DNA of 64,000 nt, from contig CAVXZH010000005.1 of assembly GCA_963766435.1 (NCBI GenBank), positions 265,610-329,609 on the forward strand, in the 5' to 3' direction. This document shows, piece by piece, positions 4,010 through 54,564 of this stretch. The notes beneath the pieces were generated by a model. The model ran no database searches, was not told the DNA's origin, and was given only the letters and a program-made list of their open reading frames with translations. Numbering within the stretch: position 1 is the first letter of the stretch; every line of letters begins with the position of its first letter. The stretch is from an uncultured cyanobacterium. GTDB lineage: Bacteria; Cyanobacteriota; Cyanobacteriia; Cyanobacteriales; Nostocaceae. Both the position numbers and the translations under genes were made by a program.

Positions 4010-6015
<2,006 letters not shown>

Positions 6016-6163: not shown

Positions 6164-7100
6164 ATGACTCCTCCAGACAACAAAAACATCATCGAAGAAA
6201 GAAAAGAACTAGTTAAAGAAGTTCTTAAAGCTTATCCTGAAAAAGCTGCTAAAAAGCGGGAAAAGCACCTCAATGTATATGAAGAAGGTAAGGCTGATTG
6301 CGGTGTTAAATCTAACATCAAGTCTCTTCCTGGTGTAATGACCGCTCGTGGTTGTGCTTACGCTGGTTCTAAAGGTGTGGTTTGGGGTCCTATTAAGGAC
6401 ATGATCCACATCAGCCACGGTCCCGTAGGTTGCGGTTACTGGTCTTGGTCAGGTCGTCGTAACTACTACATTGGTACTACTGGTATTGATACCTTTGGTA
6501 CTATGCACTTCACCTCTGACTTCCAAGAACGTGACATCGTTTTTGGTGGTGACAAAAAGCTGTTGAAATTAATTGAAGAATTAGAAATTCTTTTCCCTCT
6601 CAACCGTGGTATTTCCATTCAATCTGAATGTCCCATTGGTCTAATTGGGGATGACATCGAAGCAGTAGCTAGAAAAGCGGCTAAAGAAATTGGTAAGCCA
6701 GTTGTTCCTGTCCGTTGCGAAGGTTTCCGTGGTGTTTCCCAATCTTTAGGACACCACATCGCTAACGACATGGTACGCGACTGGGTATTCACCAGAGCAG
6801 ACCAAGCTAAGAAAGACGGTACAGCTTCCAAGTTTGAAGGTACTCCTTATGACGTAGCCATCATTGGTGACTACAACATCGGTGGAGATGCTTGGGCTAG
6901 CCGTATTCTCTTAGAAGAAATCGGCTTGCGCGTAGTCGCTCAATGGTCTGGAGATGGCACCATCAATGAGATGTTGCAAACTCCTAATGTGAAAATGAAC
7001 CTCATCCACTGTTACCGCTCGATGAACTACATCAGCCGTCACATGGAAGAGGCTTATGGTATACCCTGTCTTGAATATGATTTAATAGGCGATGTTACCA
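6164..7100 (+). CDS. nifD: nifD segment 1 (MoFe protein alpha, residues 1-~312)
   Basis: MTPPDNKN...CGVKSNIKS...[21 protein letters not shown]... canonical NifD; diverges after ...[17 protein letters not shown]. Confidence 0.9.
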
Positions 7101-7176
7101 GGATTTAGTCCACGCCTGACTTTGTTCAGTTTGAGCCTTGTTCTAAATGGACTAAATTTTAAGCCAGATTTAAGCC

Positions 7177-8586
7177 ATGATAGAAAGCCAGTATCAGGAC
7201 GTTTTTGATGACTTTATGCCACCAGCATCTACGGATGGCAGTTATTTAGGAACTCAAGCACAAATGAACGCTACACGTCAGCACCTGGAAAAGAAATTTG
7301 ATCAGGAGTTAATAGAAGTTAAAGCCAGGCTGAAAGCAGCCAAAATTAAAGTCGGTTTAATCTTGGCAGGTGGAGCTATTCAGCTACAAGCTTCGCTACC
7401 AATCAAGCCGGGTGATGTTGATACAAAAGGGACTGGGTTTAAGCAATACAAAATCTCTCTCAACATTCCTGCTAATTTAGATGGACTAAAAACGGCTGAA
7501 GAGGAAGCACACGAACTAGGAAAGCTAATAGCCCGTAAACAATTTGAATGGAATGATAAATATTCAGGTAAAATCACCAAACCAGAAAATAAACCTAAAA
7601 CCGTGGGTGAGATACTAGAAGATTTTGAATCTGAATACTTTAAACATCACAAAGTGACAGAAAAGAGTAAACACACCTTCTCTTATTACAAAGGCTTCCT
7701 GATTAGGTTGATTGGTGTTGATACCTACCTAACGCAAGTATGTATAGATGCAAAAATTGCAGAGATGTCCGAATGGTCTAAATATCATGCTGTAAAAACC
7801 CTAAAAGTCTTAAAAGGGACTCTCAAATTGACTAGCTTTAGTTTAGAGGGAATTAAAAGTACACAGCCAGAGTCAAAGATTCGTGATATTCCAAGTGATG
7901 ACGAAGTAATTAAATGCTTTCAATTATTTCATCAATATTCATTGAGTAGAAGATTGACAATCAAAAAGAACTTATTGGATACCTGGAAAATGTGGGAATG
8001 GGTATATGGAATGCTTGCCACCTATGGATTACGTCCAAGAGAGTTATTTGTAAATCCACAAATTGACTGGTGGTTGAATTCTGAAAATAAAGATAATACC
8101 TGGAAAGTTCACCCAGACACAAAAACAGGATACAGAGAGGCTTTACCTCTATATCCTGGCTGGGTAGAATTATTTAATTTAAAAGATAATCAGGAAGCAT
8201 TAGAGCTATTGAAAGCTCAAACTGATGGTAGAACCGCTTTTGCAGATATCAATACCATTAGAGTAAATTGTTCTTCATGGTTTAGACGTGTAAGTGTTCC
8301 CTTTACCCCCTACGATTTACGCCATGCTTGGGCAATTAGAGCGCATTTAATGGGAATTCCTATTAAAGCGGCGGCTGATAATTTAGGACACTCTGTTGAG
8401 ATTCATACTGAGGTTTACCAGAAGTGGTTTAGCTTGGAAAACCGAAAAAAAGCGATTAAGCAAGCAGTAGATAAACGAGATGACGTGGATATCTTGAAGC
8501 TGGAAAACTCCCAGCTAGAAGCTGAGGTTGAACGACTTAGGACGGCATTGGCTAGACAGCAGATTGAGTCATTGTTAAATAAATAA
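7177..8586 (+). CDS. XisA-family recombinase of nifD element 1
   Basis: 469 aa; same conserved motifs as 4010 and 53053 proteins; 70 bp inside the left border. Confidence 0.8.
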   Translation: MIESQYQDVFDDFMPPASTDGSYLGTQAQMNATRQHLEKKFDQELIEVKARLKAAKIKVGLILAGGAIQLQASLPIKPGDVDTKGTGFKQYKISLNIPANLDGLKTAEEEAHELGKLIARKQFEWNDKYSGKITKPENKPKTVGEILEDFESEYFKHHKVTEKSKHTFSYYKGFLIRLIGVDTYLTQVCIDAKIAEMSEWSKYHAVKTLKVLKGTLKLTSFSLEGIKSTQPESKIRDIPSDDEVIKCFQLFHQYSLSRRLTIKKNLLDTWKMWEWVYGMLATYGLRPRELFVNPQIDWWLNSENKDNTWKVHPDTKTGYREALPLYPGWVELFNLKDNQEALELLKAQTDGRTAFADINTIRVNCSSWFRRVSVPFTPYDLRHAWAIRAHLMGIPIKAAADNLGHSVEIHTEVYQKWFSLENRKKAIKQAVDKRDDVDILKLENSQLEAEVERLRTALARQQIESLLNK

Positions 8587-8660
8587 ATCCACTACCGCTA
8601 TCGTGATTCCGGTGTCACGATAGCGGTAATTATTTTGTTCTACTATCCCACTAGTTGAGA

Positions 8661-9122
8661 TTAATTAACTTTTATTTTCTGAACAGCATCCCATTGACGC
8701 TCTTTGGCTTCTTGCATTTCTGCCACCATTTGCTCTATTCTTGCGACTGCTTCTTGCCTATGACCAGGGATTCTAGATGATATAAACTCCGCAAAATAAG
8801 ACGCGCTGCGTGGGTAATATCTATTGTTCCAATCAGCAATAATCTCGATTCTTTGCTCCAATGGAACTGACCGCAGCCAACGCCGCGCTCGTTTCCAGGT
8901 TGCCGCTTCACACTGCCTCCATAAATGAATTTGTTGTTCTCTCCCCGATTGGAAAGCATCTACCCGCTCTTGTGCAGTTGGCTGGGATTCTTTAATCCAG
9001 TCAGCCAACAAGGGGAATTTTTCTTGCTGTTTGATTAGCGTCCGTTCAGATGCTTTGAGCCGTCGTGAGGTCACAGGGCGTGGCGCCCTGGAAGGGGATT
9101 TAGTAAATTTTATTCCAAACAT
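8661..9122 (-). CDS. hypothetical protein (Arg/Trp-rich)
   Basis: 153-aa ORF; no recognisable motif. Confidence 0.35.
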   Translation of the reverse strand: MFGIKFTKSPSRAPRPVTSRRLKASERTLIKQQEKFPLLADWIKESQPTAQERVDAFQSGREQQIHLWRQCEAATWKRARRWLRSVPLEQRIEIIADWNNRYYPRSASYFAEFISSRIPGHRQEAVARIEQMVAEMQEAKERQWDAVQKIKVN

Positions 9123-9128
9123 AAAATC

Positions 9129-10057
9129 CTACTGGGGGACAACTTTCTCAAAATCATCGGTACTGGCAACGCGAATTATTTCACCCTGGGGAGCTTCAAA
9201 TAGAAACATAGTTTGAGTATTTGAGGGGATGTCTTTCAGTTTGCAGTCGTACACCCATTCATAGGACGCGTCCTCATTAATCGGACTATTCGCCAAAACC
9301 CTCACGTTGCATATCGCTCCATCAGCGAGAATTTTTTTCCACTTTTTGTACTGCTTGAATTCCCAGGTAATAATCATTTCTCTAACTATTTTTTTAATGC
9401 TAGTTGGAGAAGTATCTAATAGTTTCTTTGTTGCCACCCCCTGGTTGTTATCTGGGAAATTCAACAAGAGATGCACCTTAAATCCACCTGCCTTGATTCG
9501 CTGATACAGCGTCGCCGTTACTGCTACATTTCCGTAGCTGGTGGGCAAATCCAAAACCAATGGCTTGAATCCCATTGTTTTGCAATAATCATCTAATGGT
9601 GGTGGAGAAAGTTTAATATCTGGTTCACCCTTGGTTTCAGGAGCAAATTCTTTATTAAAGGAACCATAGGGCGCAAAAATTTCCCGGAATTTATCAGGAT
9701 TATTCCCCCAATAAATAAAGCAGTGAGATTGTCTGGCTGGAGATTGTGGTTGATAGTTGGTATCGAGAAACTTAATTCTCCCCTTCCAGAAACAAATTAA
9801 GTTACTGGAGATTAGGGGGTGCAGCCAATTCGTATCCGTGGATGCTGGAACAAGGAGATCGCTTCCGTAACATGAGCAGCTTGTATCTCACTCTGTAATT
9901 TATCTATCCATTTGGAGGGACAGGAATAGGGCGGGTTCATGAATACTCGACCACTCCAAACTTGACTCAAGCCGTCATCAGCTGCGGTGAAGTGGTGGCA
10001 GGACTCAATGTGTTTGCCTTCATCAGCACAAGGGTCAAGAGTTATGCCTCCCAGCAT
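9129..10057 (-). CDS. Phage Dam-type N6-adenine DNA methyltransferase (pfam05869-like), with a 1-nt frameshift near 9858
   Basis: Frame A: DPCADEG...VFMNPPYS...; frame B continues ...LLVPASTDTNWLHPLISS...FWKGRIKF... and runs without stops into the 9129-9575 ORF; the two halves join by restoring one C in a CC(C) run. Confidence 0.55.
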
Positions 10058-13000
10058 TTGGCTGACGAGATTGGCGATATTGTCCGGTGTGTACCAGCAA
10101 TCTGATTTTTTGACAGTAACAGCTTTTTCTTCGGTGGCGTTTTCTCCAGCGGGGGGGATTTCTGGTAAAACTTCAGATTCTGGTAAAACTTCAGATTCTG
10201 GTAAAACTGGCTCAAATCCCCACGAATTAAATTTTCAGCCTCTAAGATTGCGTGACTAATTAGATTTTTTTCCTCTAATTCCCAGTTTCCCCACACCACA
10301 TCGTGTCCGGGGAGCAGAATTTTTACCGTACAAAGCACCTTGGAACCGTTGCGCTGTCCGGCTTTTACCTCAATTTGCACTTGCCCAAATTTAGAGGGAA
10401 TCTCAAAACCAAAATTATTTTCCGTTGAAAAATGATCAACATGATCAACATTTGTCTGTAACCCTTGATGGACAAGCGTTTGAGGGTGTTGATCAGTGAT
10501 CAACAAATGATCAACATGATCAACATTTATTTTTTCAAATTCAGAAAATTCAAATTTTGAATTTTTAAATTCACTTTCAGAAAATGTTGATCGCTGTTGA
10601 TCAATGTTGATCACATGATCAACGCACTCAACGCCATGCCCTGTATGGTTTTGCGGCTCTGTGTTGATCATGTTGATCATTTTTGCAGGAAAGAATTTAT
10701 TTCCCTCTTTAGTTATCGCTCCTTTTTCAACCAGAGTGTGGCAGTTGGCGGTTATTTCAGTGGTGGGGGTAGACCCGAAAGCCCGTCGCTGTAATTGTTT
10801 GATGTCTCTAGCGGTCACACCCTCTGGATGTTTTTCAACGAAATTTTTGATTTTTAAGAAGTCACCCGTAATACCAGCGTCGTTAGTTTTGTACAAAACT
10901 TGCAGCTGAGAAGCGAAAAAATCTATCATCCCACAAGCTACGGTCACAGCTTGGATGTCAATCATCTGGGATGGTGTCTCTCCAGCCAGGACAGCATTAA
11001 TAATGTGTACCCAAAGTGCAAGCCTAGCTAGATATCCCTGTAATTTGGGGTAAGCGACTGCGAGGGTTCGGTGTATGTCCTTGAGTCGTTCCCCCTCATT
11101 AACCAAGAAATTGTAGTGAGTCATAAATATCTTTTTGGCTTCATTGCCTAAGAAATAGTCTCTCGGTGGTAAACACCCGATGTTGTGATAAAGGCTTCTC
11201 AATCTTTTTTCTAATTTCTGTCCCGTGCCGTCATCCTCTTGGAATAGGTCAATATATCCGGGCGTTCCAGGCACTAAACAAAGTAGCCACCTCGCGTACT
11301 CACCTTGTGGGTCTTCAAAATTTTGCCGTGCTAATAAATTAGTGATTGTTTCTGGCTGAGTCGCTCCAGTCCTGGAGATGGCAGAACGATTAAGGAATAA
11401 TCTTTCGGTGGCCGTATCCTTCATGATGGCGTGACCATTGAATTCCGATAACTCAATTTCCAGATCGTTGCCCTTGCCACCGCGATACATGTTTCGACTG
11501 TTTACAAAACCAGACCACTCATCCATGTAGGCTAAGATCCCTCTCGGATTTTCGTGGTGTATTTTTATCCGGGTTTCCGTGGTACATCCCTGAATTACAA
11601 ATCTAGCTCTTGGGGGTGGTTCTTGGGGTGGTTCCTCTCCACTGGTTTTTTTGTAATTGCGAATATCCTCTTTATATCGCTTGTCAAGAGGTTCCCACTT
11701 TTCATATTCCTCTAGTTCCAGTGCAAAAAGTGGCTTGAGGATAACTGTTTGAGCCGGGGTTTTCTTCTCTCCAGTTGGGGCAATCACGCAACTCCAAAAC
11801 ACAGCAGGCTGCGTGTGATTGCCTACGGTATTGACTATGATTTTGGCAGAGGTTCCGATTCTTGAGCCAGCAGCAGGAATCAAAGTAGTGATAAGTCGCT
11901 CCACTGGAGTAGGCATTGAATCAGCGCTGATAGTAAGCAGTTTCGCTAATTCCCCGCCATCTCCATAAAGGATTTCAAATGGATTCAAACGTGCTTGCTG
12001 CGCCTGCATTATTGATGGGATAGTCTTCCCGATCTCTTGGCGTTCTTCTGTATCACGGCGCTCTTTGACTCGTGCTTCGTAAAGTTTGCGAATGTCAGCC
12101 GTTGAATAAGTATCGCTTTTTAGTTCTGGTAGAAATAGCTCAACTTCTGATTTAGGTAAATCTTTGTCTATTAGGGAGTCGAGAATTTTGATTAGAGCCT
12201 GTTTGTGGTCAAGCAATTCGTTTGGTATGATTACCTGTTCTTTGTTCCCTGTTCTTTGTTCCCCCATAATTGGCTCACTACTTTGTTGTCGCTGCCAATG
12301 CTTGATGCAATTTTCTAAAGCATCATCAGTGAGGGTGGCAGTGGGGTTATCTTTTTCTGCTGATTTCCAAATTGCATTAGCTTCTCGGTCGTCGAGAGGT
12401 GGAGAGCAACGATGACAGAAATCATCAAACAGTGTTCTAGGATTGCCGTCAAATCTATGTCCAAGATGAGTCAACCTGATGGCAGTACCAATCAAATTAC
12501 GAGCTAATTTAGCCCCGGCACTATTTCTACCACCCTGGCTTAATCCACTATCAATTAAAGCTCTATCATCTTTAGAAAGGCATCGGTAGAGCGGTACATC
12601 TCCAGTTGGTAAAGGGATAGATGGGGGCGGTAATTGTTGTTTTTTTGGTTGAGGAATTATGGCTCTGAGTTCCTCAAAATTATATTTCTTGCCAGAGTTG
12701 AGGATGATTCTGGAAAGATTGCTGCCAGCACTTGAGAAATGGTAGCAACCAGCCAGCCTCATCACTCTAGATGGGTTCTTTAGGCTTCTATCAGCATCGG
12801 CATATTCTAATAAGTCGGTTTGTAATGCCTTCCAAGAATCAGGGCTAATTCTATCGGTTACCCAATAACTATGAATAGATTTACCACCTGTATCCACTTG
12901 TAGCGTTGGCTCAGGTAGACCGAGGGATTGCCATAAATTTATCTGTAGTTCTTTGTCCAGGTTGTCATGTTCATAAAAGATAGCTCGGCATTCTGTCACA

Positions 13001-13263
13001 GCAGCGTCGGTATGTCCACCGCCGTTAACTACTAGATAGATGCCTCTCTCCTCGGACTGCCATTCACTAGCAGTTTTTATTAGTTGGTCAAGGCTTTTTA
13101 CCTCCTTCTTCCTACCTTTATCACCTTGCCTATCTGGGTTGTCACTAGGTAGGAAGGCACGGAGAAATACGCTATCACCTTTTCTGTAGCCAAGGGCTGA
13201 GAGGTGTTCACCAATAATAGTAGCATCAGGAGAATTAGGGAAAGAATGAATACCTTGTGTCAT
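10042..13263 (-). CDS. Primase-polymerase (prim-pol) N-domain + P-loop/helicase-like replication protein of the element; C-terminal low-complexity VDHVDH/FYQNLK repeats
   Basis: 1073 aa; LVVNGGGH...DTGGKSIHSYWV resembles prim-pol motifs; P-loop-like APTGEKKT; the C-terminus overlaps the iteron/tandem repeat DNA. Confidence 0.45.
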   Translation of the reverse strand: MTQGIHSFPNSPDATIIGEHLSALGYRKGDSVFLRAFLPSDNPDRQGDKGRKKEVKSLDQLIKTASEWQSEERGIYLVVNGGGHTDAAVTECRAIFYEHDNLDKELQINLWQSLGLPEPTLQVDTGGKSIHSYWVTDRISPDSWKALQTDLLEYADADRSLKNPSRVMRLAGCYHFSSAGSNLSRIILNSGKKYNFEELRAIIPQPKKQQLPPPSIPLPTGDVPLYRCLSKDDRALIDSGLSQGGRNSAGAKLARNLIGTAIRLTHLGHRFDGNPRTLFDDFCHRCSPPLDDREANAIWKSAEKDNPTATLTDDALENCIKHWQRQQSSEPIMGEQRTGNKEQVIIPNELLDHKQALIKILDSLIDKDLPKSEVELFLPELKSDTYSTADIRKLYEARVKERRDTEERQEIGKTIPSIMQAQQARLNPFEILYGDGGELAKLLTISADSMPTPVERLITTLIPAAGSRIGTSAKIIVNTVGNHTQPAVFWSCVIAPTGEKKTPAQTVILKPLFALELEEYEKWEPLDKRYKEDIRNYKKTSGEEPPQEPPPRARFVIQGCTTETRIKIHHENPRGILAYMDEWSGFVNSRNMYRGGKGNDLEIELSEFNGHAIMKDTATERLFLNRSAISRTGATQPETITNLLARQNFEDPQGEYARWLLCLVPGTPGYIDLFQEDDGTGQKLEKRLRSLYHNIGCLPPRDYFLGNEAKKIFMTHYNFLVNEGERLKDIHRTLAVAYPKLQGYLARLALWVHIINAVLAGETPSQMIDIQAVTVACGMIDFFASQLQVLYKTNDAGITGDFLKIKNFVEKHPEGVTARDIKQLQRRAFGSTPTTEITANCHTLVEKGAITKEGNKFFPAKMINMINTEPQNHTGHGVECVDHVINIDQQRSTFSESEFKNSKFEFSEFEKINVDHVDHLLITDQHPQTLVHQGLQTNVDHVDHFSTENNFGFEIPSKFGQVQIEVKAGQRNGSKVLCTVKILLPGHDVVWGNWELEEKNLISHAILEAENLIRGDLSQFYQNLKFYQNLKFYQKSPPLEKTPPKKKLLLSKNQIAGTHRTISPISSAKCWEA
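10160..10212. repeat. 18-bp tandem repeat x3 (ttctggtaaaacttcaga)
   Basis: Direct reading; encodes KFYQNL repeats on the minus strand. Confidence 0.8.
10431..10690. repeat. Iteron-like array of ~12 TGATCAAC/GTTGATCA units (GATC-rich), candidate replication origin of element 1
   Basis: 12 GATC sites in ~260 bp (about 1 expected); units atgatcaac / gttgatca in direct and inverted orientation. Confidence 0.55.
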
Positions 13264-13678
13264 GGCTAGTTCTCCCCCTTGATAGATGCTGTACTCAAAG
13301 TAGTTAGGCTATAATCATTAGCAGATTGAATCATTTTTAAAATCCTTATTTTTGATAAGCGAGGAGCGGCTAAAACTCCTCGCTTTTAAATTTGTGGAGC
13401 ATCAAGAAAGGAAGATAAATTGTGTGTCTCCCCGCCATACGTCAAAAGCAAGGTTAGCAGCAATCATTAATTCGATAATGCCCTCTACATCTTGATAGTG
13501 AGCGAATGTATTCTTTAGTCCACCCATAGAAAATCCTTTTTTTTGCTTTTTAAGAAACTTCTGAATTTCTCTGATAGAGATTCCCAGTTTTTGGTATTCT
13601 TCGGTACTCATTAAAATACCTCTGGGACTGCTCCATCCGGGTTTCTAGATTTGCGCTTTGCCTCTGCTTCAAAAGCGT

Positions 13679-13915
13679 CTATTTGATCAGGAAGAAGATT
13701 TCCGAAGCTGCAAAGGCTCGGTCATAAGCTGGTAGTCCACTAGAAGATATGCAGTAGAGTAGTAGGTTTATTTCTGATGCCACATCCAATGAAAAGTGGA
13801 TGTATTCCATGCCTTGGAGGCACAATCTGGCAATAGCTCTTACTCTTTTATATTCGTTAGGTGCTTGCTGTTGGGTGTTCATGATCAGTCCTTTCTTGAA
13901 GTTGTTGCCTGTCAC
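13679..13915 (-). CDS. small hypothetical protein
   Basis: 78-aa ORF in a run of small minus-strand ORFs (13402-14175). Confidence 0.25.
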   Translation of the reverse strand: MTGNNFKKGLIMNTQQQAPNEYKRVRAIARLCLQGMEYIHFSLDVASEINLLLYCISSSGLPAYDRAFAASEIFFLIK

Positions 13916-14294
13916 GCTCTAATGATTACTTTTTCTAGATGCCACTGACGCGATCTCCGGGGATATTTTTTAGAGGCTCCCTCTATAAGTCGCTTCGCCA
14001 GAGCGTCGTTACCGTATAACAGTACGAGTAGTCGCTTTTCCAGTAGTCGCCGCTTCAGTAATCTTGAACGCAGAAAAATGAAACAGACAGGTATCGCCAT
14101 GAGCGTCAGTGTGATGGACGCTGTATTAAGGCGGATGAATTCTGATATCCACCAGGTAAGATAAGAAGTATTCATGAGTAGTGTCTGTAATTACACAAGT
14201 ATCTTAGCGTACCAGAATAGATAGCCAGAATCACGTGAGCGATGCTTATATGATTCTGTTGCTATCAAGCTACAGAATCATATGATGAGCTAGA

Positions 14295-14540
14295 TTACTT
14301 GTCGTCTTTCACTCCTGTTGTATCAATACCAAAACTACCGCATAGCGCCTTGAGGGGAACACCAAGTTCTCGTGCGAGAGAGATCGCTCGGTCAAGCCTG
14401 GGGATTGATACCCCTCTCTCCCAATCGCCAATGATGCGAATACCTACTCCCATCCGTTGGCTTAGTTCTGGCTGAGTCAGCCCCATGGCTTCTCTTAATT
14501 CTTTCAAGGTTGGGATTCCTGAATTTGATGAATTGTTCAT
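14295..14540 (-). CDS. XRE-family helix-turn-helix transcriptional regulator
   Basis: LKELREAMGLTQPELSQRMGVGIRIIGDWERGVSIPRLDRAISLARELGV = Cro/C1 HTH. Confidence 0.6.
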   Translation of the reverse strand: MNNSSNSGIPTLKELREAMGLTQPELSQRMGVGIRIIGDWERGVSIPRLDRAISLARELGVPLKALCGSFGIDTTGVKDDK

Positions 14541-14898
14541 ATACTAGCAGAAAATTGCTAGCAGTAAAGTGCTTGACAAAAATATTGTCTGGCAGTAAAC
14601 TGCTAGTGTGGACTACCAACCGACTAACCAGACAAAGGAATTTCGATTGGTTGTTTAAAGTCTCTCATGATGGACAAATAGCTCTATGTCTCAGCTGGTG
14701 CTAGAGATATAAAGCTATTTGTCTTTAAACCCAAACCTTGTGACAAAAGCTCCCTCCTGCCAAAACGTGACAACTCACCCGCAGGACACCCCAGTAACCA
14801 CGGAGCAGACGACCCCATGAGCTACGAGTGCCGTGGGAAACATGAGCCTAGTGCTGACCACCTATTAATTAATGATTTAAAGTTCAACTCAACTCAAT

Positions 14899-15399
14899 AT
14901 GGAAATCAAAAAACTTATCAAGAAAATCAAACGAATGGCGTTCGCCCTAACTGGTCACACCCAGGAGGAGATGCAGCAACCAGATACACCAAAAACTTTC
15001 TTTAACGATGAGATGAGAGAGTATCAACCACTCCCCACTGCATCTAACAAATGGATCAAAGTTGATGACATCCACCTCAATCCGACCTTTCTTGTGTCTG
15101 TCCACGAAGACGGCAATTTTGTTCTCGTGTCCGATGCCAATAACAGGACATGGAAATTTGATGGAGAAAAAAAGAGTGCATTCCTAACCCAATTCGATGC
15201 ACTTTGTGGCTATCAAAAATCCTGGATAAGGGTTGGAGACATGCGATTCAACATGAATCTTGTCGTGTCGGTGACTGAATACTACTCTGCGTCAACCCCT
15301 TTCGTTGCAGTTGCCAACACCAGCCGTGCGACGCCGAATATTTCTGGATCAACCGCGATCGCATTTCTGAACCAGTTCAATGCACTCTGTCATGACTAG
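14899..15399 (+). CDS. hypothetical protein with an internal duplication
   Basis: Two ~50-aa repeats ending ...FLTQFDALC / ...FLNQFNALC. Confidence 0.35.
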   Translation: MEIKKLIKKIKRMAFALTGHTQEEMQQPDTPKTFFNDEMREYQPLPTASNKWIKVDDIHLNPTFLVSVHEDGNFVLVSDANNRTWKFDGEKKSAFLTQFDALCGYQKSWIRVGDMRFNMNLVVSVTEYYSASTPFVAVANTSRATPNISGSTAIAFLNQFNALCHD

Positions 15400-17893: not shown

Positions 17894-17949
17894 GCCAATT
17901 GTGTTTGAATGATCACGCTCCAAAAGAGGAATACGATCGCTAAAATCAT

Positions 17950-19044
17950 CTAGGCGGAATGGTGCTTAATTATCTGGGCATCACTCAATTGATAATTGTA
18001 TATTGACGCTTCGGCTAAGGTTAAAGCTGGAGAAACGCCCCATCCTGTTTTACTCCACCCCAACAGCCAGTAACCATTAAATGGTTGGTAATTAGGGTCG
18101 GACGAACTCGCTTCTAAGTGATTGTCTAGCCATAGCCTAATGCCATTGTCACCAAAGCTCAAAGTCAAGATATGCCAATCGTCATCCGCTACGTTAGTTA
18201 TTCCCTCTAAGTTTGTGCCATTGTAGTTGTAAAATCTCAGTGTTCCGTTGAGAACGTATACCTCTCTCGTGTATTGCCACCCTGTTGTATCCAAAGTATT
18301 AGAAAAAGAAAGTAGACTAGCCTGACTGTTGTTGCACTTAAACCTACATTCATATGTAAAGGCTTTTGGTGAGTAAATTTGATATGGAATTTGAATGTAT
18401 CCATTGCTCAAATTAATGGCTTTCTGACTATTGATGCCAGCAACGCTGGCATAGCCACCGATGTATGTGCCATTCCTAGTATTTCCAGAGCTATCAACAG
18501 CCGTGCCGTTGGTATCCTGAAATGCAAAATTCAGCCAAGGGTTATCGAGTAGAAGTGTTTGGTAGTAAGTGTTCCCGACAATAGGTGTAACCACCAATGG
18601 CTGGTCTGTCTCCCAGCCGCTATAGCCATAGATAAGAGTCAATACCCTTGTGGTCATCTGGCTAGATTCTTGCAGTACGCTATTGATTGTGGAGGAACAA
18701 GCAATAGTAACGTTTGTCAAAGTTACCCCTTGGCTAACCCATATTTTAATGCTATCCCCCAAAGTAGCGACCGTAGGAATATCAATTGTCGCCGCACCGC
18801 CAATATAGTAGCTTGTGTTAGACAAAGCACTAAAGGGGGCGGTCTTGACCGTCCATCCGGTGGGAGCAGTAGCTTTGATTATCTGGGTTATAGACTGAGA
18901 TGGAGATGAAATACCCACCCCGGAAAAATTCTTGAACTGAGTCGCCAGTGCACTCAATCCATTGATTATATTTTGCGGTCGATTCGATAAATTATAACTT
19001 TCGTCTATATTAAAACTCATTTTTCTCCTATAAAAAAAAGACAT
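17950..19044 (-). CDS. LamG (concanavalin A-like lectin) domain protein, possible phage tail fibre/structural protein
   Basis: C-terminal ...DDDWHILTLSFGDNGIRLWLDNHLE...NGYWLLGW... Laminin_G_3-like. Confidence 0.45.
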   Translation of the reverse strand: MSFFYRRKMSFNIDESYNLSNRPQNIINGLSALATQFKNFSGVGISSPSQSITQIIKATAPTGWTVKTAPFSALSNTSYYIGGAATIDIPTVATLGDSIKIWVSQGVTLTNVTIACSSTINSVLQESSQMTTRVLTLIYGYSGWETDQPLVVTPIVGNTYYQTLLLDNPWLNFAFQDTNGTAVDSSGNTRNGTYIGGYASVAGINSQKAINLSNGYIQIPYQIYSPKAFTYECRFKCNNSQASLLSFSNTLDTTGWQYTREVYVLNGTLRFYNYNGTNLEGITNVADDDWHILTLSFGDNGIRLWLDNHLEASSSDPNYQPFNGYWLLGWSKTGWGVSPALTLAEASIYNYQLSDAQIIKHHSA

Positions 19045-19312
19045 TAAAGCGTCGTACTTAATGTCTTGACAGGTTGCAATTATCGTGAAGTAGTTTATTT
19101 GGTTTCTCCTTTTAAATACCTGATATCCGCCTCAACTTTGCCCAGCTTTTCATTGAGTATTTCAAACATTAGCTTCGCATGTACCGTAAATTCGGCTTGT
19201 ACTAAAGCATTTTTCTTTGTCCCATCCCAAATCTTCCAGATAGCCATAAAGAGAGCGATTCCTACCCCTAGTTCAGTGGCGTTAACCATTTTATTCGAAC
19301 CCCGGCAAGCGT

Positions 19313-19735
19313 TTACACACCAATTATTGTTTTTAAAACATCTATTTCCGCTATTACATCAACAGGAGACGTAATAGCTCCCTCATATTGCCATATAGAC
19401 ATATTTAGGTCTATAAACCAACGGGGCACTCGAATCAACACTTTGTAATCAGCGTCTAAATCTTTAAAATGAATTATGTTGAATTTCCCCAAAAAGAGAG
19501 GGATTACTTCTTCAGAACTATAGGAGTCACCGAATTTAGTATCTAAAATTCGGTAAACTCGTCCAGCCCAGTCCCAACGACTGCCAATTGGTACGGAAGT
19601 TACCATGTTAATGGCAATAATCGGGCTATCAAAGATGACATCAGGGTTGATGTCTGTAATAGAAATAAATACCCTCCCACGCCTTCCTGTTCGGCGGGAA
19701 TAGGAGGCAGAGACAGTGTGTACATCTGACTCCAA
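19313..19735 (-). CDS. hypothetical protein
   Basis: 140-aa ORF. Confidence 0.3.
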   Translation of the reverse strand: MESDVHTVSASYSRRTGRRGRVFISITDINPDVIFDSPIIAINMVTSVPIGSRWDWAGRVYRILDTKFGDSYSSEEVIPLFLGKFNIIHFKDLDADYKVLIRVPRWFIDLNMSIWQYEGAITSPVDVIAEIDVLKTIIGV

Positions 19736-19771
19736 TTTGCATCAGGTTTGAGGCTGATTCTAGTCATGCCT

Positions 19772-20215
19772 CTACTGGATAAGAGTTGTTTCCTCGATCT
19801 CGATGTCCATAAAATTCAAAATTGTTTCTTCGAGTTCTAGTGAGCTTGTGGTTATAGACTTGCTTGTTTTTATATTCGTCAACATCCACGCTTGAGAATC
19901 GTCACGAGTCAGAGAAAATTCGGCATTCCTGTAGCTGAAGTATCCCTTAGTATCTATCGGGTTGGATGCCAAGTCTTTAAAAGTAGTACCAATGGCATTG
20001 AACAGTCCCAACGATATTGCCCGCTTCAACTCGCTCAAAAACTGATCGTTACATTTTTGAGCAACATATTTTATTAAGTCTTTTCTCTCGTCGCTAATTT
20101 GCTGGTTAGTTATAGCAAGTATTGCTGTTTTCTGTTTTCTCTGGTTTAAAACAGCATCAATGTTGTAATTTGCAGCAGCAATTTTGGCTGCTATTTCTTG
20201 CGGGTCGCTAAACAT
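19772..20215 (-). CDS. hypothetical protein
   Basis: 147-aa ORF. Confidence 0.3.
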   Translation of the reverse strand: MFSDPQEIAAKIAAANYNIDAVLNQRKQKTAILAITNQQISDERKDLIKYVAQKCNDQFLSELKRAISLGLFNAIGTTFKDLASNPIDTKGYFSYRNAEFSLTRDDSQAWMLTNIKTSKSITTSSLELEETILNFMDIEIEETTLIQ

Positions 20216-20451
20216 AGTAAGTCCTTAATTATTGCAAAACCAAGAAGCGTTTTCTTCTAGATATTCTAATTCCCCGCCTTGCTGATACTCCGTGGCAATA
20301 TCATCGTTGACCAGAAGCGGTATACCGTTACTGTCAACGATGATATTGGTATCTCCAGAGGCAATAGCTTTTTGAAGTAGCCATTGAATAGGAATGGTTT
20401 GCAGCTGCTCGTAAAAATCTTCATGGTGGGGGAGAAGTAAATCTAGCGCCA

Positions 20452-21114
20452 TTACTGAAGCTGCTCCGAACTCAGGATGTTGTAGCCAGCTTGTCCTAAG
20501 TCGGACATCTTAATGGTCGAGTAGAAGCTAGAGAATGTCCCTATGTTTTCTATATAGAGGCTTGCCCTCCCTGGCTTAGGACGGGTTGTTCCTCTCACTA
20601 GGCGAGCAAGTTCCGCCTCAGTAGTTATAGTTGCACTTGTTTTTAATCCGAGGGCTGCACCATAACTATTGAAATCAGCCTTGTTCATAGGAAACACGTA
20701 GAGAGTTCCGTCCGACAATTCCGCGACAGCGGAATGAGATGGCTTTGAACCGGGCGCCTGTAAGTTACAGGTTTTTCGTCCCTCTGACTGCCTCCATCCC
20801 GCTGTGGTGGCAGTGGTATATTTGTCCCAACCACAGAAAGTGGAGACTGAGCTTTGAGCCGCTCCTTCCGCAGACAGTTTTTTAGTAAATCGAGCTGGCA
20901 GGGGTGCCTTAGCTCCACTGATTTTGATAACGACACTCAAGTTTTCCGAGCCTCCGGTTTGCCCGCCGGAGATATGCCCAAGTGCCGTCAGATCTGATGC
21001 GGATATCCCTGGAAGGGCTGTCAGGTCTTTGGCGTTCCAGCCGTAATAAATAGAACTCGTAACTCTGACGTAAGTGAAAACATCCCTTTTCTTTCCTCTC
21101 GTGGCTGTTGACAT
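20452..21114 (-). CDS. hypothetical protein (phage structural-like?)
   Basis: 220-aa ORF; stop/start overlap with 20225-20452. Confidence 0.3.
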   Translation of the reverse strand: MSTATRGKKRDVFTYVRVTSSIYYGWNAKDLTALPGISASDLTALGHISGGQTGGSENLSVVIKISGAKAPLPARFTKKLSAEGAAQSSVSTFCGWDKYTTATTAGWRQSEGRKTCNLQAPGSKPSHSAVAELSDGTLYVFPMNKADFNSYGAALGLKTSATITTEAELARLVRGTTRPKPGRASLYIENIGTFSSFYSTIKMSDLGQAGYNILSSEQLQ

Positions 21115-21539
21115 ATTCTGGGAGCAAACTTTTTGTGCAATCCAAGACTAGCTGATTTAAACCAGGATTGCAATAGCCTGGAGGGATCGTAAAAGCGATA
21201 TTTGACGTCTTGTGCAATCACGGAACCTTAAAGGTTCTTTAATGATTTGTGGTAGAATAAAAAAGATTTTGTAGTCGAGTAAATCGAGAATGGAACTTAT
21301 TTGTTTTCCGCTATTGAACCTCAGGAGCAAACGCGCTATGCTTCGTGTATCGCGCCGTCGCGGCAACTCGAAGTGGAAGCGAATGTACAGCTATAATCCA
21401 CGAAGAAATTTAGTTCTCCGACTTGTAGAAGAACTAGCCATTACCGAAGATGCTGTAAAACATCAAATACTAAAAGAGCGTGATTTTTTATTAAAACAAT
21501 AGTTTTTAAGTTCAACTAAGCTATCTACAAATACACCCA

Positions 21540-22655
21540 ATGTTAGCCAAATTTGAAAGTTACGTGAATACCTCGTCAAGGGTAATTGACCATAATTACC
21601 ACAGGATTACTGATATTCCTAGAGGCGTAAGCAGCTTGCCTGATACAGTTGTACAGGTAAGCCAAAACCTAGTAATTAATAGCTTACAATGCTATGCTTC
21701 TATCAAATCATTAGCAGTGGTAGCCATACCTAGCTACCCACTCGAATTCAGTGAAAGTGAGAGAATAATAGCTGATTTAAATCTGGAATGGACATCAGCA
21801 AGGTGGCACCTTCAAGTATTCCTAGAAAATACGGTTAATAATACTCTATTCCTGTTAGGGCAAGTATCCCTCCTGAATGTATCACCGTATCCTTATCGGC
21901 AGTACAACTTACTTAAGGCTATCAATGATAATGCATTGCCACTGCAATTGGGCGAGAATTCACATCTAGGCTACAAATTGTATAACCCTGGATTCTCTGA
22001 GATATACATCGTATCCAATGAGAGTATTTCTGACCTAATAAATGTTTCCGCTTCCTTTACTAAAGAAGTATGGGTGCAAGAGACAGAAATTATTAATATC
22101 TCTGTACCACTAACACCAACGATTAACACACCAGTGAATATCACCAATAACATTACTGGTGGTTCTACCTCAAATTCAAATAACAACAATACACCTTCAT
22201 TGTTATTTATGCTGAAGCCAACAATTACGTCAGGGCTGGTTACTCTTACATCTGAGAATAAAGCCGTAAAACTTGCAACAGTTAACGGCAAGATAGTCGT
22301 ACAGCTAAAACTAGACCCTAATAGCCAAATCCCCTACGGTAGCGAATTTCAGATTTATTCGTATAACACGGAACCCATCAACAAATGGGACGCCTCATCT
22401 AGGTTGCAAAAAGCAAAAGTAGAAAACTCAGAGGGATGCCAAGAGGAACTATCAGGGATTAAAGTATTCGATGGATATTTCTGGTTAGTGATATTCTGTA
22501 AATTATCTGGAACTCGAGATTGGAACCAATACGGTACGTGGAGAAAATGCCAGATAGCTACCGCTGCTTTCAATGCTGAAGGAGCGCTAGTAATCACCAT
22601 CTCCGGTTTATGGATAGAACCGAGCGTGTGGGTAGGTCAGTATTACTCTAATTAA
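21540..22655 (+). CDS. hypothetical protein
   Basis: 371-aa ORF; N/T/S-rich middle. Confidence 0.3.
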   Translation: MLAKFESYVNTSSRVIDHNYHRITDIPRGVSSLPDTVVQVSQNLVINSLQCYASIKSLAVVAIPSYPLEFSESERIIADLNLEWTSARWHLQVFLENTVNNTLFLLGQVSLLNVSPYPYRQYNLLKAINDNALPLQLGENSHLGYKLYNPGFSEIYIVSNESISDLINVSASFTKEVWVQETEIINISVPLTPTINTPVNITNNITGGSTSNSNNNNTPSLLFMLKPTITSGLVTLTSENKAVKLATVNGKIVVQLKLDPNSQIPYGSEFQIYSYNTEPINKWDASSRLQKAKVENSEGCQEELSGIKVFDGYFWLVIFCKLSGTRDWNQYGTWRKCQIATAAFNAEGALVITISGLWIEPSVWVGQYYSN

Positions 22656-22668
22656 TTAAGGAGATCAA

Positions 22669-23220
22669 ATGACTGTGTTACTAGGGAATGATTTCAGTTT
22701 TTATAAGCTATGGAACGAGAAAGCGTATCATCCATACAATGACAATTTTTTGATAGCGGGGATAGATAGCTTGCCTATTTGGAGCGTCATATTACAGCAT
22801 CAACTAGAGCATTTTAAATCTGAAGACAAAATGTATCTATCTTGCTCACATTTACATGGAATGAGTAAGGTATTGGATATTCAAAAGTTAAATGTTGACG
22901 AATACATGGAATTCAGCCAATTAGACGTACTGTTCTATTGCACACAGTTCTATGAGGATATGACATCGAGCTTATGGGAAATACTAGAACAAGCATTCAA
23001 GGATAAAATGATTTATTTATTGGATGCTTACCCTAACCTGCATATAGTACCAATACCATTAGTAAGGTTTGTATACTCAGAATACAATTGCTTAATGTAT
23101 CAATGGCTTAAGGCTACGTACCCAAGCAGAGTAGTGAATATTGACTTTTTGATATCAACCAAACCAGGGTATCAAGAGTTAACCAGGCAAGAATATCTAT
23201 CACTTTTGAATGTATTATGA
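22669..23220 (+). CDS. hypothetical protein
   Basis: 183-aa ORF, RBS-like ggag upstream. Confidence 0.3.
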   Translation: MTVLLGNDFSFYKLWNEKAYHPYNDNFLIAGIDSLPIWSVILQHQLEHFKSEDKMYLSCSHLHGMSKVLDIQKLNVDEYMEFSQLDVLFYCTQFYEDMTSSLWEILEQAFKDKMIYLLDAYPNLHIVPIPLVRFVYSEYNCLMYQWLKATYPSRVVNIDFLISTKPGYQELTRQEYLSLLNVL

Positions 23221-23533
23221 GTATCCTAGAGGGATTGCCCAAAAACCACCAAGAATTACTCAACCGTGATTTACGGAATTCGCCATATTATGGGTCTGGA
23301 GTCCCCGGCTCTTTAACTAATTGGGTGACTAAAAAAGCCGTATCAATAGCCGTGAAAGAATTCACAAGACGAATTTTTGATAACGGGTGCGACACTCTAA
23401 TCCAGATAAGAGATAGAATAGGGAATTTATGGCTACCTGGTGACGCCTTGGTTATCAGGAATCCATCTCAAGCATGCACAAGAAAACCCTCACCAGAGCC
23501 ATATCAACCTAGTGGATTCTCGCCAAATAATAT

Positions 23534-25075
23534 TTGCCCCGGTGGTGGGAAGTATATTGTTGCAAAAAAGAAATATCAGAATTATTTGGAAACTGTCCCT
23601 ATGGGTGGTGCTTAAACACCAATGGGGAGTTTTACGATTGGTACTTTGACCAATGGTTCGTAGATTCCCTAGATATAGACAGATTAACTTGTAGGGTAGC
23701 TAGAATCCAACAAAGTAACACAAATGCAACTATTCAGGATAATAGAATATGTACCATGTTCTATGAGAATGAATGGTATACAGGAAACCTGACTCTAAGA
23801 CTCAACAGAAAAGATGCTATCGAGATTATGGGCACTCCCGTCTTTGTGATAGCTACTGTATACAATCGTTACGACGCATTTCAAGAAGATGTAAACAGGA
23901 AGGAATCGGTTGAGCGACGCGGTGAACCGAATGTAACTTTAAACCCAGTTGGAAGATATGCTCTTTTACCCGAAACATTGGTGGTAAATTCACCATCACC
24001 AATACCACAAAGAAGTATCTCCCCTGCTTACAGTGCTTTGACATTCTATGGACTGGAATATATATATCTCATGCCGCGATATGGACTAGTGCATGAAGAA
24101 TATCAGTATATTCAATTGTGCAAACCGTTCGATGTTGCCCCACCACCGCCGCCAAAAATACCACCCCCAAAAGAGGATTGCTGTATGTGTAACGACGATC
24201 TATTGCGTTTGATTAACAAGAAATTAGGCGATTACCCCGGAGTGTTGCCAGCAAGCGTTAAAAATAGCGTTGCTGGCACTACAACTATCAACAGTGTCGC
24301 CGAACACTTAATACATAATTACAAAACATTTGATGAAGTGGTGGGAAGCTTTCCCGTTGTAATTAGAATAGAAGATACGGATTTAATACAAGATGGAGAG
24401 CAAACTAAAACAGTAGAAATACAAAATATTGCTCAAGGAATTGCCGAGATTTTTGGTAGCAATATATTATCGAAAGCTGATACAGCAGCAATACTAGCGG
24501 TATGTCTTTCGACGCTGACAGAAACCAGCCAAACGAAGCAAATAGCGACCAAGAATTACGATATCTTAAAGTCTATACTCGACTGGCTAGGTTTCAAATT
24601 CAAGGAAGTTTCTCGTAAAATAGTATTGATGGTAAAACCAGGAGAAAACCGAATTTCAGACATGGTACAACCGTCGGAGGTTGATTATATTACCGTCGAA
24701 GAAGATTTTGGTAAAAGCAATTTTCAACTATTCATTAACAACATGAGCGATTTTGCAGCACACTGGTTTGCTGCGAATAGAGTTAGCTTGGGCAAGCGAA
24801 ATGTCGAAGAAAATTTACAATCTTTAAAATCCCAGTTTGTTGGGGCTAAAGAGATAGACAAGGCGATTAATACCGATCTGAAAGACCACCTGAAGCCTGC
24901 AACAAGTGATAGCGATTTCGATAATTTCTTGGAACAGGCAGAAAAAGGATTTGAGACACTACCAGATATCACACCCGATCAAGGTGGCAGTATATCGCCG
25001 TGGGGTAAGCCATTTAATAAACGACCAAAATTAACACAAAAAAGTAGAACCAATGAAGGCAGTAGTAATTTATAG
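23534..25075 (+). CDS. hypothetical protein
   Basis: 513-aa ORF; PPPPPKIPPPK linker. Confidence 0.3.
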   Translation: MPRWWEVYCCKKEISELFGNCPYGWCLNTNGEFYDWYFDQWFVDSLDIDRLTCRVARIQQSNTNATIQDNRICTMFYENEWYTGNLTLRLNRKDAIEIMGTPVFVIATVYNRYDAFQEDVNRKESVERRGEPNVTLNPVGRYALLPETLVVNSPSPIPQRSISPAYSALTFYGLEYIYLMPRYGLVHEEYQYIQLCKPFDVAPPPPPKIPPPKEDCCMCNDDLLRLINKKLGDYPGVLPASVKNSVAGTTTINSVAEHLIHNYKTFDEVVGSFPVVIRIEDTDLIQDGEQTKTVEIQNIAQGIAEIFGSNILSKADTAAILAVCLSTLTETSQTKQIATKNYDILKSILDWLGFKFKEVSRKIVLMVKPGENRISDMVQPSEVDYITVEEDFGKSNFQLFINNMSDFAAHWFAANRVSLGKRNVEENLQSLKSQFVGAKEIDKAINTDLKDHLKPATSDSDFDNFLEQAEKGFETLPDITPDQGGSISPWGKPFNKRPKLTQKSRTNEGSSNL

Positions 25076-25085
25076 GTAATTTAGA

Positions 25086-26618
25086 ATGGGTTTCAACATA
25101 GATAAAAGTCAGCTTTCCTCAATGCAATCTTTTAGCAACAGAGGGAGCCTATCAATCAATACTGCTTTGCAATCTGCAAGTACAAATGATGAAGGTGGCA
25201 TAACTGGATGGCTGTGGCAGGGATTGGCTGGGGCTACTAATTTTTTATTTAGCAAAATTGGTGGTTTTTTATCCTGGTCTGCGTCTCAGGTGTGGGGTTT
25301 TATTGTTGCTTCAGCTCAATTCATATACTCATTTAATTGGAACCAAACGGATGCCCAAATTAATGCATCTATAAATGCACAATGGGAAGTGATTGCTTCC
25401 CAACTAGGAGGTACGCTTGGTAACGCGGCGGGTTATATTGCTTGTGGATTCCTACCAGCCGCAGGTATTTTTGTTTTCAATGAGCCACTGGGAGCATATA
25501 TCCTCTCTAAAGTTACAGAGGAATTTGCCGAAGAATTTTTATCTAATCTAGCAGTGTTGTCAACATCAATTCTTAATGCGACCGCACAAACAGCTTTCAA
25601 GCATATATATATGAATGCGCGGAAATTCATCAAGGACAACATCAGATCAATTAGACAGATATTTCCTGGTATTTCTGAAGCAGCTATAAACAATTGGGGT
25701 AGTGAAAAATCAAGGCCCTGGTCGTTTGCCCTGGCTGTAAATAATTGGGTTGAATCCATAAACCCCCAATGGGTACAGAACCTCATTGAAGAGTTTATAG
25801 AAGAATTTCAGGATGGCTGTAGAGAGGCTGGCTATGTTGTCGCGGAAGCAATAACCAGTTTTTACGCTGAATCCCTGATTCAGCAAAAACTGATACCCGC
25901 CGCCGGAGAAAATCTAACTGTAGAAATACAGTTAGACAGAGAGGATAATTTATCAGACAAAATCATCCTGCAAGCGCCTGAAAGCGAGTTGCGAGGACAG
26001 ATAAATAGCGTCCTCGCAATCGACCAGATGATCAGGAATAAAAGTTTTGGGACTGTTTACGGCGTTCTGCCATTTGAGCCGCTAAAAGAAAGGCGATTTA
26101 AGCCGCAAATACATTTAGTTTTTAAAGGAAAATCAACGGATGGAAGAGCACTAGAAAGTGAAATTACCCTTAGGATACTCAATAAAACCGATAACGATTT
26201 TCAGAACTATACGTATATAGATGAATTGGCGAATACTATAAAAATTAAGTTTGCTACTCCCCCATTCACAATAAATAGAGGGGGAGAGCCTTACACCTAT
26301 AACGATGGTGCATTAGTTACTCAGCTTTGGGTAGCTGACGCACAGGAAGCCCGGAAGGTCATCGAAAGAATATTAGATTTGGTGGGGCAATCGCCCAATT
26401 GGAAAAAACTCAAGCCGATGTTTGCCGTGGACAGATCCGACCTAACCCTCGTACCTGAAAAAATAACAGTGCTTTCTCAAACACAGAAGTTGCCTGTCAA
26501 GGGTTATCCAGGCACTGTTACTTTTCGGGAAGCATTCTTGATGTTGTATGGACTGGATAGCCCTGTCTCATTGGTGGACTTGACAGGAAAACGCAATCCT
26601 AGAGTCAAGGTTTTGTAA
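25086..26618 (+). CDS. hypothetical protein
   Basis: 510-aa ORF, last gene before the element-1 right border. Confidence 0.3.
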   Translation: MGFNIDKSQLSSMQSFSNRGSLSINTALQSASTNDEGGITGWLWQGLAGATNFLFSKIGGFLSWSASQVWGFIVASAQFIYSFNWNQTDAQINASINAQWEVIASQLGGTLGNAAGYIACGFLPAAGIFVFNEPLGAYILSKVTEEFAEEFLSNLAVLSTSILNATAQTAFKHIYMNARKFIKDNIRSIRQIFPGISEAAINNWGSEKSRPWSFALAVNNWVESINPQWVQNLIEEFIEEFQDGCREAGYVVAEAITSFYAESLIQQKLIPAAGENLTVEIQLDREDNLSDKIILQAPESELRGQINSVLAIDQMIRNKSFGTVYGVLPFEPLKERRFKPQIHLVFKGKSTDGRALESEITLRILNKTDNDFQNYTYIDELANTIKIKFATPPFTINRGGEPYTYNDGALVTQLWVADAQEARKVIERILDLVGQSPNWKKLKPMFAVDRSDLTLVPEKITVLSQTQKLPVKGYPGTVTFREAFLMLYGLDSPVSLVDLTGKRNPRVKVL

Positions 26619-26924
26619 GTGCAATGAACCCGATCCATCTGGTTTTGCGATCGCCACGACATATAAGTAAAAAACCGCGCAGCGCATCTTGAAATATAAG
26701 TTAAGCTAATTAACAGGTTCCCTATGGGATTAAGCGATCGCTAAAGCGATCGCTAAACCAATCAGCTAACGCATTTACAAGGGTTTCAGCCTTCAGAGAT
26801 AGAGGATTTAAGCCAAAAATAAGCATCAGGAAAGATGCGGCGCTAGAACGCTTACGCTGTAATGGTTTCACCTTACTGATATTTATCTACCCTGGTTAGA
26901 GTATAACTTCTTTGGTCGTTACCA

Positions 26925-27366
26925 AGATTGCTGCTTCTTTACGCGAAATCGCTTCTAAGTTTGATGCTAAGATTCAAGCAAATGCTGAGAAAGTAATTGC
27001 TAAGTATCAACCCACAATGGATGCGATCGTTAGCAAGTATCGCCCCCGTTTAGAAGGTAAGACTGTCGCGATGATGGTTGGTGGTCTACGTCCTCGTCAC
27101 GTTGTTCCTGCTTTCCAAGACTTGGGTATGAGAATGATTGGTACTGGTTATGAGTTCGCTCATAATGATGACTACAAACGTACCACTCACTACATTGAAA
27201 ACGGTACCATCGTTTATGATGACGTTACCGCTTATGAATTTGAAGAGTTTGTCAAAGCTCTAAAACCAGATTTAATTGCTTCTGGTGTGAAAGAGAAGTA
27301 CGTATTCCAAAAGATGGGTCTTCCTTTCCGTCAAATGCACTCCTGGGATTACTCCGAACCTAACCA
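26925..27366 (+). CDS. nifD: nifD segment 2 (middle part)
   Basis: [28 protein letters not shown]...[16 protein letters not shown]...[10 protein letters not shown] matches NifD; ends at GGATTACTCCG. Confidence 0.9.
27356..27366. repeat. GGATTACTCCG 11-bp direct repeat (left copy) of nifD element 2
   Basis: Exact copy at 54554-54564; identical to the known Anabaena nifD-element core. Confidence 0.85.
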
Positions 27367-54553: not shown

Positions 54554-54564
54554 GATTACTCCGG
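54554..54564. repeat. GGATTACTCCG direct repeat (right copy)
   Basis: Exact match to 27356-27366. Confidence 0.85.

Follow-up and report, generated by a model that had tools for sequence, protein, structure and literature searches.

The nifD-895 interruption elements (Hilton, Meeks & Zehr 2016) occupy position 894 of nifD and are bounded by a direct repeat, which reads TATACCCTG in A. cylindrica PCC 7122 and TATTCCCTG in Anabaena PCC 7108 (PMC4874684, Table B). Their tyrosine-recombinase gene, xis, lies at the element start, 131-132 bp inside the edge, and has the same strand as nifD (PMC4874684). Described examples are element #5 of A. cylindrica PCC 7122 (74,986 bp), #2 of Anabaena sp. PCC 7108 (19.811 kb), #2 of C. 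stagnale PCC 7417 and #2 of Microchaete PCC 7126 (PMC4874684). In the heterocysts of A. cylindrica, sequencing and polymerase chain reaction show the precise loss of the 74,986-bp element bounded by TATACCCTG and the restoration of a 1,503-bp nifD (bioRxiv 10.1101/629832). The subject here is Element 1, which interrupts nifD in a 64,000-nt stretch of DNA from an uncultured cyanobacterium (contig CAVXZH010000005.1, positions 265,610 to 329,609), called the window below. Element 1 is an ordinary nifD-895 interruption element; its kind is known, and the strain-level member is new. Its borders are direct copies of TACCCTG, which lie about 30 bp upstream of the place chosen in an earlier note made from the sequence of the window. 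As a whole, the locus is probably explained by a nifD-895 element with TACCCTG borders and by one extra base in nifD that arose as an assembly error.

The comparison set consisted of 80 nifD loci from other genomes, among which 68 were taken as uninterrupted (nifD stays open over more than 290 codons ahead of the matched segment) and nine are interrupted at the site considered here. In the 68 uninterrupted loci, the sequence ...GGTAT(A/T)CCCTGG TTAGA(A/G)TATAAC...GGNCCNACCAAGATT is unbroken, and the frame runs through it for 20 residues. The comparison of NifD proposed in the earlier note returned the canonical PW[LM]E[YF]NFFGP, in frame, in 80/80 loci, followed by TKIA in almost all. In the nine interrupted loci (L001, L003, L008, L015, L033, L034, L054, L058 and L066; junctions were printed for all except L034), nifD homology restarts at CC(C/T)TGG, and positions 26890-26929 of the window are therefore chromosomal nifD and not element-internal sequence. 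The right junction reads TTTATCTACCCTGGATGG in Anabaena FACHB-1237 and TTTATCTACCCTGGTTAG in the window, and the right junctions of L008 and L001 share their layout with the window: TTTATCTACCCTGG. The loci L054 and L058 have a different right end, AAAATTCCCTGG, and represent a Rivularia-type subfamily.

The left border was compared with seven related elements, chosen by recombinases that are 67-76% identical to the product of 7177-8586. In 7/7 of them, nifD stops at GGTAT(A/T)CCCTG and element sequence continues onward to xis; the window breaks at the same point. These relatives and the window share a left-end pattern composed of T[AC][CT]..AATATGA, ..ACC..GATTTAGTCC, a conserved leader and the start of xis. 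Since the same sequence type is kept in the left ends of all seven, 7069-7176 is element DNA. The 5' segment of the window nifD is colinear with the 68 uninterrupted loci as far as ...GGTATACCCTG.

The left core copy, TACCCTG at 7062..7068 (plus strand), stands in a border that reads TATACCCTG; the right copy, at 26888..26894 (plus strand), stands in a border that reads TCTACCCTG. Element 1 occupies 7062..26887, which is 19,826 bp with one core copy included, and its interior (7069-26887) has a guanine-plus-cytosine fraction of 0.418. The window repeats 7/9 bases of TAT(A/T)CCCTG, and FACHB-1237 likewise repeats only TACCCTG. This heptamer alone occurs 5 times in the window, with 5.3 expected, and its count is not meaningful by itself. 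The start coordinate given by Hilton was checked in locus L084 and is the first base of TATACCCTG. In the window, TATACCCTG starts at nt 897 of nifD, a gene with one extra codon upstream, which corresponds to about nt 894-895 of the reference gene.

Both strings quoted in the earlier note are present, the left one (ccctgtcttgaatatgatttaataggcgatgttaccaggatt) at 7064-7105 and the right one (ccctggttagagtataacttctttggtcgttaccaagatt) at 26890-26929. The right string encodes PWLEYNFFG, as had been said, and the nifD continuation (10 residues) is one base out of that frame. The origin of the two arms is the reverse of what the note proposed, as follows from the 68 uninterrupted loci and the seven related elements: the PWLEYNFFG codons are chromosomal because they lie downstream of the right core, and the divergent codons are element DNA because they lie downstream of the left core. 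The 12 residues regarded as a retained chromosomal flank are actually read-through into the conserved left end of the element. The truncated nifD open reading frame (ORF) continues into the element for 13 codons and terminates at TAG, 7106-7108, which falls within the conserved motif ATTTAGTCC. The puzzle described in the note arose because the borders were placed about 30 bp too far downstream and because of a probable single-base assembly error. For elements of this kind, borders are better set by comparison with uninterrupted nifD than by the longest local repeat.

The extra base lies in the chromosomal segment just downstream of the right core. At 26918..26919 (plus strand), the window has GT in place of a single C, so that it reads GGTC[GT]TACC where 80/80 relatives have GGNC[C]NACC; in longer form, it has GGTCGTTACC where all 80 relatives have GGNCCNACC, and the nifD form is GGTCGTTACCAAG versus GGNCCNACCAAG. 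As read, nifD excised at TACCCTG carries a +1 frameshift (19 residues are read, continuing to a stop). When GT is replaced by a single C, which is one base fewer, and both elements of the gene are spliced out, a canonical NifD of 501 aa is obtained. Over the 1,367 nt of nifD that were aligned, this GT is the sole indel that is not a triplet, and the spliced NifD has 0 substitutions at columns at least 95% conserved in the 68 relatives. The anomaly sits at a conserved GGTCC, and conserved GGWCC sites number only three in nifD as a whole.

Similar defects were found in the neighbouring genes. There are three frame-breaking single-base indels in nifK, at 55058 (TGG to TCAG), at 56161 (A lost) and at 56312 (T of GGATCG lost), and two in nifE, in GGCCC-ATCG near 57277 and in GGTC-ACAG near 57328, where GGTCC is expected. 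One-base repairs yield a NifK of 511 aa that is as conserved as the relatives are among themselves, and a full-length NifE with normal conservation, for which a 28-residue stretch was read. Three of the four alignable indels lie in columns of GGWCC/GATC/GGCC, and such columns account for about 5.5% of the total (binomial estimate, p ~7e-4). In Nostocales, GGWCC, GATC and GGCC frequently carry methyl groups, and such modification is known to cause consensus errors in long-read assemblies. The extra base is read as a likely assembly consensus error. Counting it, nifD, nifK and nifE have at least six single-base indels, mostly at GGWCC, GATC or GGCC, and six indels without loss of conserved residues have the look of consensus errors and not of pseudogene decay. 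Under this reading, the true sequence of the site would be GGTCCTACC. The earlier note had itself mentioned, as an alternative, a CCCTG crossover that would give canonical NifD only if one additional base in GGTCGTTACC were wrong; this alternative is supported by the absence of any other non-triplet indel in nifD, by the GGTCC site and by the five indels in nifK and nifE.

Several points weigh against the error reading. The change from C to GT is a substitution plus an insertion and not a simple homopolymer slip, and it lengthens the identity with the left arm of the element from TACCA to GTTACCA. Two other GGTCC sites and several GATC sites in nifD are read correctly; therefore, any motif-linked error is not systematic. 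The long ORFs of the elements are intact (1,073, 625, 513 and 510 aa), and the exact recombinase sequence was found in one contig only. The frameshift allele TTYTTYGGNCGTTACCAAGATTGC gave 0 matches in metagenome and viral contigs, collections with no positive control, and close relatives of the right junction gave 0 matches in metagenome contigs, likewise with no positive control. A systematic conversion of GGTCC to GGTCG was considered and rejected, since GGTCG/CGACC occurs 40 times with 41 expected and shows no global excess. The depletion of GGWCC in the window (7 versus 64) is not used as evidence because it fits restriction avoidance as well as error. Neighbouring ORF pairs in the elements were also compared with Pfam, which gave no information on assembly quality, as element genes may be real pseudogenes. 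Annotation at face value would label nifD, nifK and nifE as pseudogenes; their frameshifts should be treated as probable assembly errors before the organism is called nif-defective.

If the extra base were real, the nif cluster could have been inactivated recently, with nifD, nifK and nifE frameshifted and the borders at TACCCTG unchanged. Excision at TACCCTG would then give a NifD truncated after about 323 residues, which is possible in culture on combined nitrogen. The sequence as given is indeed frameshifted, the five further frameshifts in nifK and nifE would fit lost selection on the whole cluster, and the change from C to GT is complex and not a homopolymer slip. However, neutral decay would give mostly substitutions, and six indels are accompanied by zero conserved-column substitutions in NifD and by normal conservation of NifK. 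Furthermore, the indels cluster in GGWCC/GATC/GGCC, which points to a technical cause, and nifH-3', nifN, nifX and all three xis genes are intact; recent inactivation is therefore considered unlikely, but it takes most of the weight left over by the error reading. Another event considered, short-patch gene conversion, would have copied the GT of the left arm (GATGTTACCAGG) onto nifD during border pairing or ectopic repair and so changed GGTCCTACCAAG into GGTCGTTACCAAG. Both new bases match the left arm and extend the shared block from 5 to 7 nt, and the left arm of the window, TTACCAGGATT, is nearer to CTACCAAGATT of nifD than the arms of most relatives are (AACCCACGATT). Yet the 23 nt from the core to the patch are still of the nifD type, which would leave an isolated patch of 2-8 nt. 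A two-base match is expected by chance in about 1 of 16 cases. The left arm of Nostoc PA-18-2419, GATACCGAGATT, shows such variants without a change in nifD, and no comparable template exists for the five indels of nifK and nifE. Conversion is accordingly regarded as quite improbable. If it had occurred, nifD would be unrestorable by canonical excision or would be restored only by an aberrant join at GTTACCA, and the locus would give direct evidence that developmental excision elements can damage or remodel the host gene.

The least credible of these explanations, and one that is given hardly any weight, is the crossover in GTTACCA (7094-7100 / 26918-26924) favoured in the earlier note, by which the right arm would be element-internal and would preserve ancestral nifD codons, and an in-frame but non-canonical NifD of 502 aa would be formed (17 residues read). 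The join is in frame, and GTTACCA is common to both arms. Against this, none of the related elements has a second, GTTACCA-like repeat there, seven relatives keep the left arm as conserved element DNA, and the resulting protein would have other residues in place of W, N, F, F and P, all five of them invariant across the 80 loci. The homologous element of A. cylindrica excises at the TATACCCTG repeat, and GTTACCA occurs 13 times in the window with 7.2 expected by chance, a count that is not meaningful alone. The heptamer looked like a core because the anomalous GT matches GATGTTACCAGG of the left arm. The chromosomal junction implied by a GTTACCA crossover would be ...GGCGATGTTACCAAGATTGC..., whereas TACCCTG borders predict ...GGTATACCCTGGTTAGAG....

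The similarity between the two arms is confined to a short segment. In the 20 nt 3' of TACCCTG, 7069-7088 and 26895-26914 match ungapped at 11/20 positions, a value reached by 0.8% of control nifD 20-mers. For the same 20 nt, the left arm of the element matches the nifD of a relative at 12/20 positions, which 0.07% of the controls reach. The arms of the relatives give 8-12/20, and 6/8 arms, the window included, are below 2% of the controls. The block (A/G)AATAT(G/A)A, at +5 to +12 from the core, is the heart of this similarity, and the relatives keep it too. Across all 40 nt, the arms require a 2-nt gap, and their global alignment reaches p ~0.06 against composition shuffles. When the 42-nt left arm was slid with gaps along all of nifD, the true site ranked 461 of 2,916 positions. 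After this ranking, the full 40-bp repeat was dropped as a meaningful unit, and the anchored first 12-20 nt were retained. Thus, the roughly 40-bp imperfect repeats of the earlier note hold for the core and about 20 nt on its 3' side (11-12/20), while their distal half and GTTACCA are not above chance. Upstream of the core, where the right end of the element is compared with nifD, the similarity is not significant for either nifD element of the window. The classical GGATTACTCCG element of the window shows the same one-sidedness, with 10/20 matches downstream of its core and 4/20 upstream.

Tyrosine recombinases generally bind half-sites beside the crossover region on both partners. The arm similarity is read as a candidate recombinase half-site present at each border. 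One recombinase would have to bind 3' of the core at both, which may be why the element resembles nifD over its first 12-20 nt. The one-sided similarity in both XisA-type nifD elements of the window and in seven relatives gives a concrete candidate for this half-site. A captured copy of the target, as suggested in the earlier note, was rejected because the read-through lasts 13 codons and the resemblance has dropped to background within about 20 nt. A replacement copy of the target end, as in integrators of tRNA genes, did not agree with the data either: the read-through is short and, beyond the segment with 11-12/20 matches, the arms are no more alike than by chance.

During heterocyst differentiation, the recombinase would pair both borders and exchange strands inside the shared core. 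A circle with the junction ...TATTTATCTACCCTGTCTTGAATATG... would be released, and nifD would be rejoined across 16 residues of the restored protein, with the chromosomal junction predicted for TACCCTG excision being ...GGTATACCCTGGTTAGAGTATAAC.... The sequence comparisons show the borders, the family, the conservation of the arms and the indel pattern. We infer the excision chemistry, by homology, and also the function of the arm as a half-site and the erroneous nature of the extra base.

The left end of the element, 7069..7176 (plus strand), comprises the P' arm and the xis leader and is conserved in the seven related elements. It contains a perfect 10-nt inverted repeat, ATTTAGTCCA/TGGACTAAAT, at 7103-7112 and 7148-7157, with 35 nt between the copies, and a tandem TTTAAGCCA x2 (7158-7166, 7169-7177). 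The tandem extends into the start codon of xis, and related elements keep both features. These repeats may serve the recombinase as accessory sites or act as a regulatory operator. The motif ATTTAGTCC is loosely like the classical XisA core GGATTACTCC.

The xis gene of Element 1 (7177..8586, plus strand, the strand of nifD) begins 115 bp inside the left border and encodes a tyrosine recombinase of the XisA/XisC family with 469 aa. The protein is 48% identical over 468 aa to XisA of PCC 7120 and 67-76% identical to the nifD-895 recombinases of C. stagnale, A. cylindrica and PCC 7108. A 100%-identical database protein carries the precomputed Pfam families PF27551 (XisAC_N) and PF27132 (XisAC_2nd); in the window protein, a weak Phage_integrase match covers residues 374-415. 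In the alignment with XisA, a 22-residue set and VYQKW are kept. We assign to these motifs the catalytic roles known in the tyrosine-recombinase superfamily, namely Arg of box I, (H/Y)xxR, His and the Tyr nucleophile. The cargo of Element 1 is phage- or plasmid-like. A primase/helicase-like gene with DUF3987 lies at 10042-13263 on the minus strand and a DUF5131 gene at 16473-17396, and many ORFs belong to no family.

The surrounding region is the nif cluster of a heterocyst-forming cyanobacterium, in which nifD starts at 6164 and is interrupted twice. The 5' segment of nifD (6164..7068, plus strand) holds codons 1-301 and 2 nt, matches the Pfam family Oxidored_nitro and ends in the left core copy. 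The chromosomal middle segment (26895..27356, plus strand) begins with (P)WLEYNFFG and ends in the left core of the second element; the 3' segment (54564..54703, plus strand) is required to rebuild the whole gene after removal of the latter. This second nifD element, of the classical XisA type, occupies 27346-54552 (27,207 bp), with exact copies of GGATTACTCCG at 27346-27356 and 54553-54563, and breaks the gene at HSWDYS|. The product of its xisA (53053-54387, minus strand) shares 82% identity with the PCC 7120 counterpart. The 5' end of this gene was checked for a frameshift and none was found; the ORF begins with a Met that corresponds to residue 40 in PCC 7120 XisA. The second element also carries an IS605-type TnpB/Cas12f-like ORF (48576-50012). 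At 40715-42878, Pfam domains overrun the ORF ends (AAA_5 without its N-terminal part, an FGE-sulfatase with the C-terminus cut), and the ORFs with cut domains are either decayed cargo genes or further assembly indels.

Upstream of nifD, the window starts inside a nifH interruption element (1-5554), of which the right junction alone is within the window, with the published core CCGTGAAG at 5547-5554. Its XisA-like recombinase gene (4010-5437, minus strand) encodes a protein 47% identical to the enzyme of Element 1 and is followed by the 3' piece of nifH (5416-6015). Downstream, nifK, nifE, nifN and nifX follow from about 54,925, with nifK at 54925-56460 and nifE at 57078-58455. In the whole window, GGWCC (7 versus 64 expected), GGCC (15 versus 123) and CYCGRG (1 versus 21) are rare, and CGATCG is in excess (21 versus 4.5 expected). 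The motif avoidance and the CGATCG excess are compatible with restriction-modification of the AvaI/AvaII type in the host and with HIP1-like repeats.

Small nifD-895 elements were also seen in the comparison set. By locus coordinates, the element of Anabaena sp. FACHB-1237 (L008/L087) has about 2.3 kb and that of Nostoc sp. PA-18-2419 (L015/L088) about 4.7 kb, with little beyond xis in either; the size contrast is with about 20 kb in the window and 75 kb in A. cylindrica.

With regard to the recombination sites, the borders of Element 1 resemble the core-type sites attP and attB of lambda Int, in which identity is limited to an overlap of 6-8 bp and the flanks are imperfectly similar, since one enzyme binds them on both partners. 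Unlike the lambda att sites, the arms in the window show detectable similarity on only one side of the core. Element 1 also shares with the classical 11-kb nifD element and XisA of Anabaena (Nostoc) sp. PCC 7120 the recombinase family, a short direct repeat within nifD and, as predicted for Element 1, a developmental excision that would restore the gene. The classical element differs in its core (GGATTACTCCG), in its target (nt ~1353 versus 894) and in the position of xis, which lies at the far end on the opposite strand.

The closest agreement is with the nifD-895 elements. As in these, Element 1 is inserted after GIP, before the W codon, has the core TAT(A/T)CCCTG, carries xis on the nifD strand at 115-132 bp from the edge and keeps the conserved left-end sequence; a primase/helicase-like gene follows on the minus strand. 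The gene order and the size resemble those of the Anabaena PCC 7108 element (19.811 kb versus 19,826 bp). Unlike the described examples, the window repeats 7/9 core bases, with TCTACCCTG as the right copy, and, unlike the relatives, it has the extra base downstream of the core in nifD. The recombinase of PCC 7108 is only 67% identical to that of the window, which therefore comes from a different organism. Furthermore, no known recombinase is more than 76% identical to that of the window, and Element 1 is therefore a new strain-level member of the nifD-895 elements.

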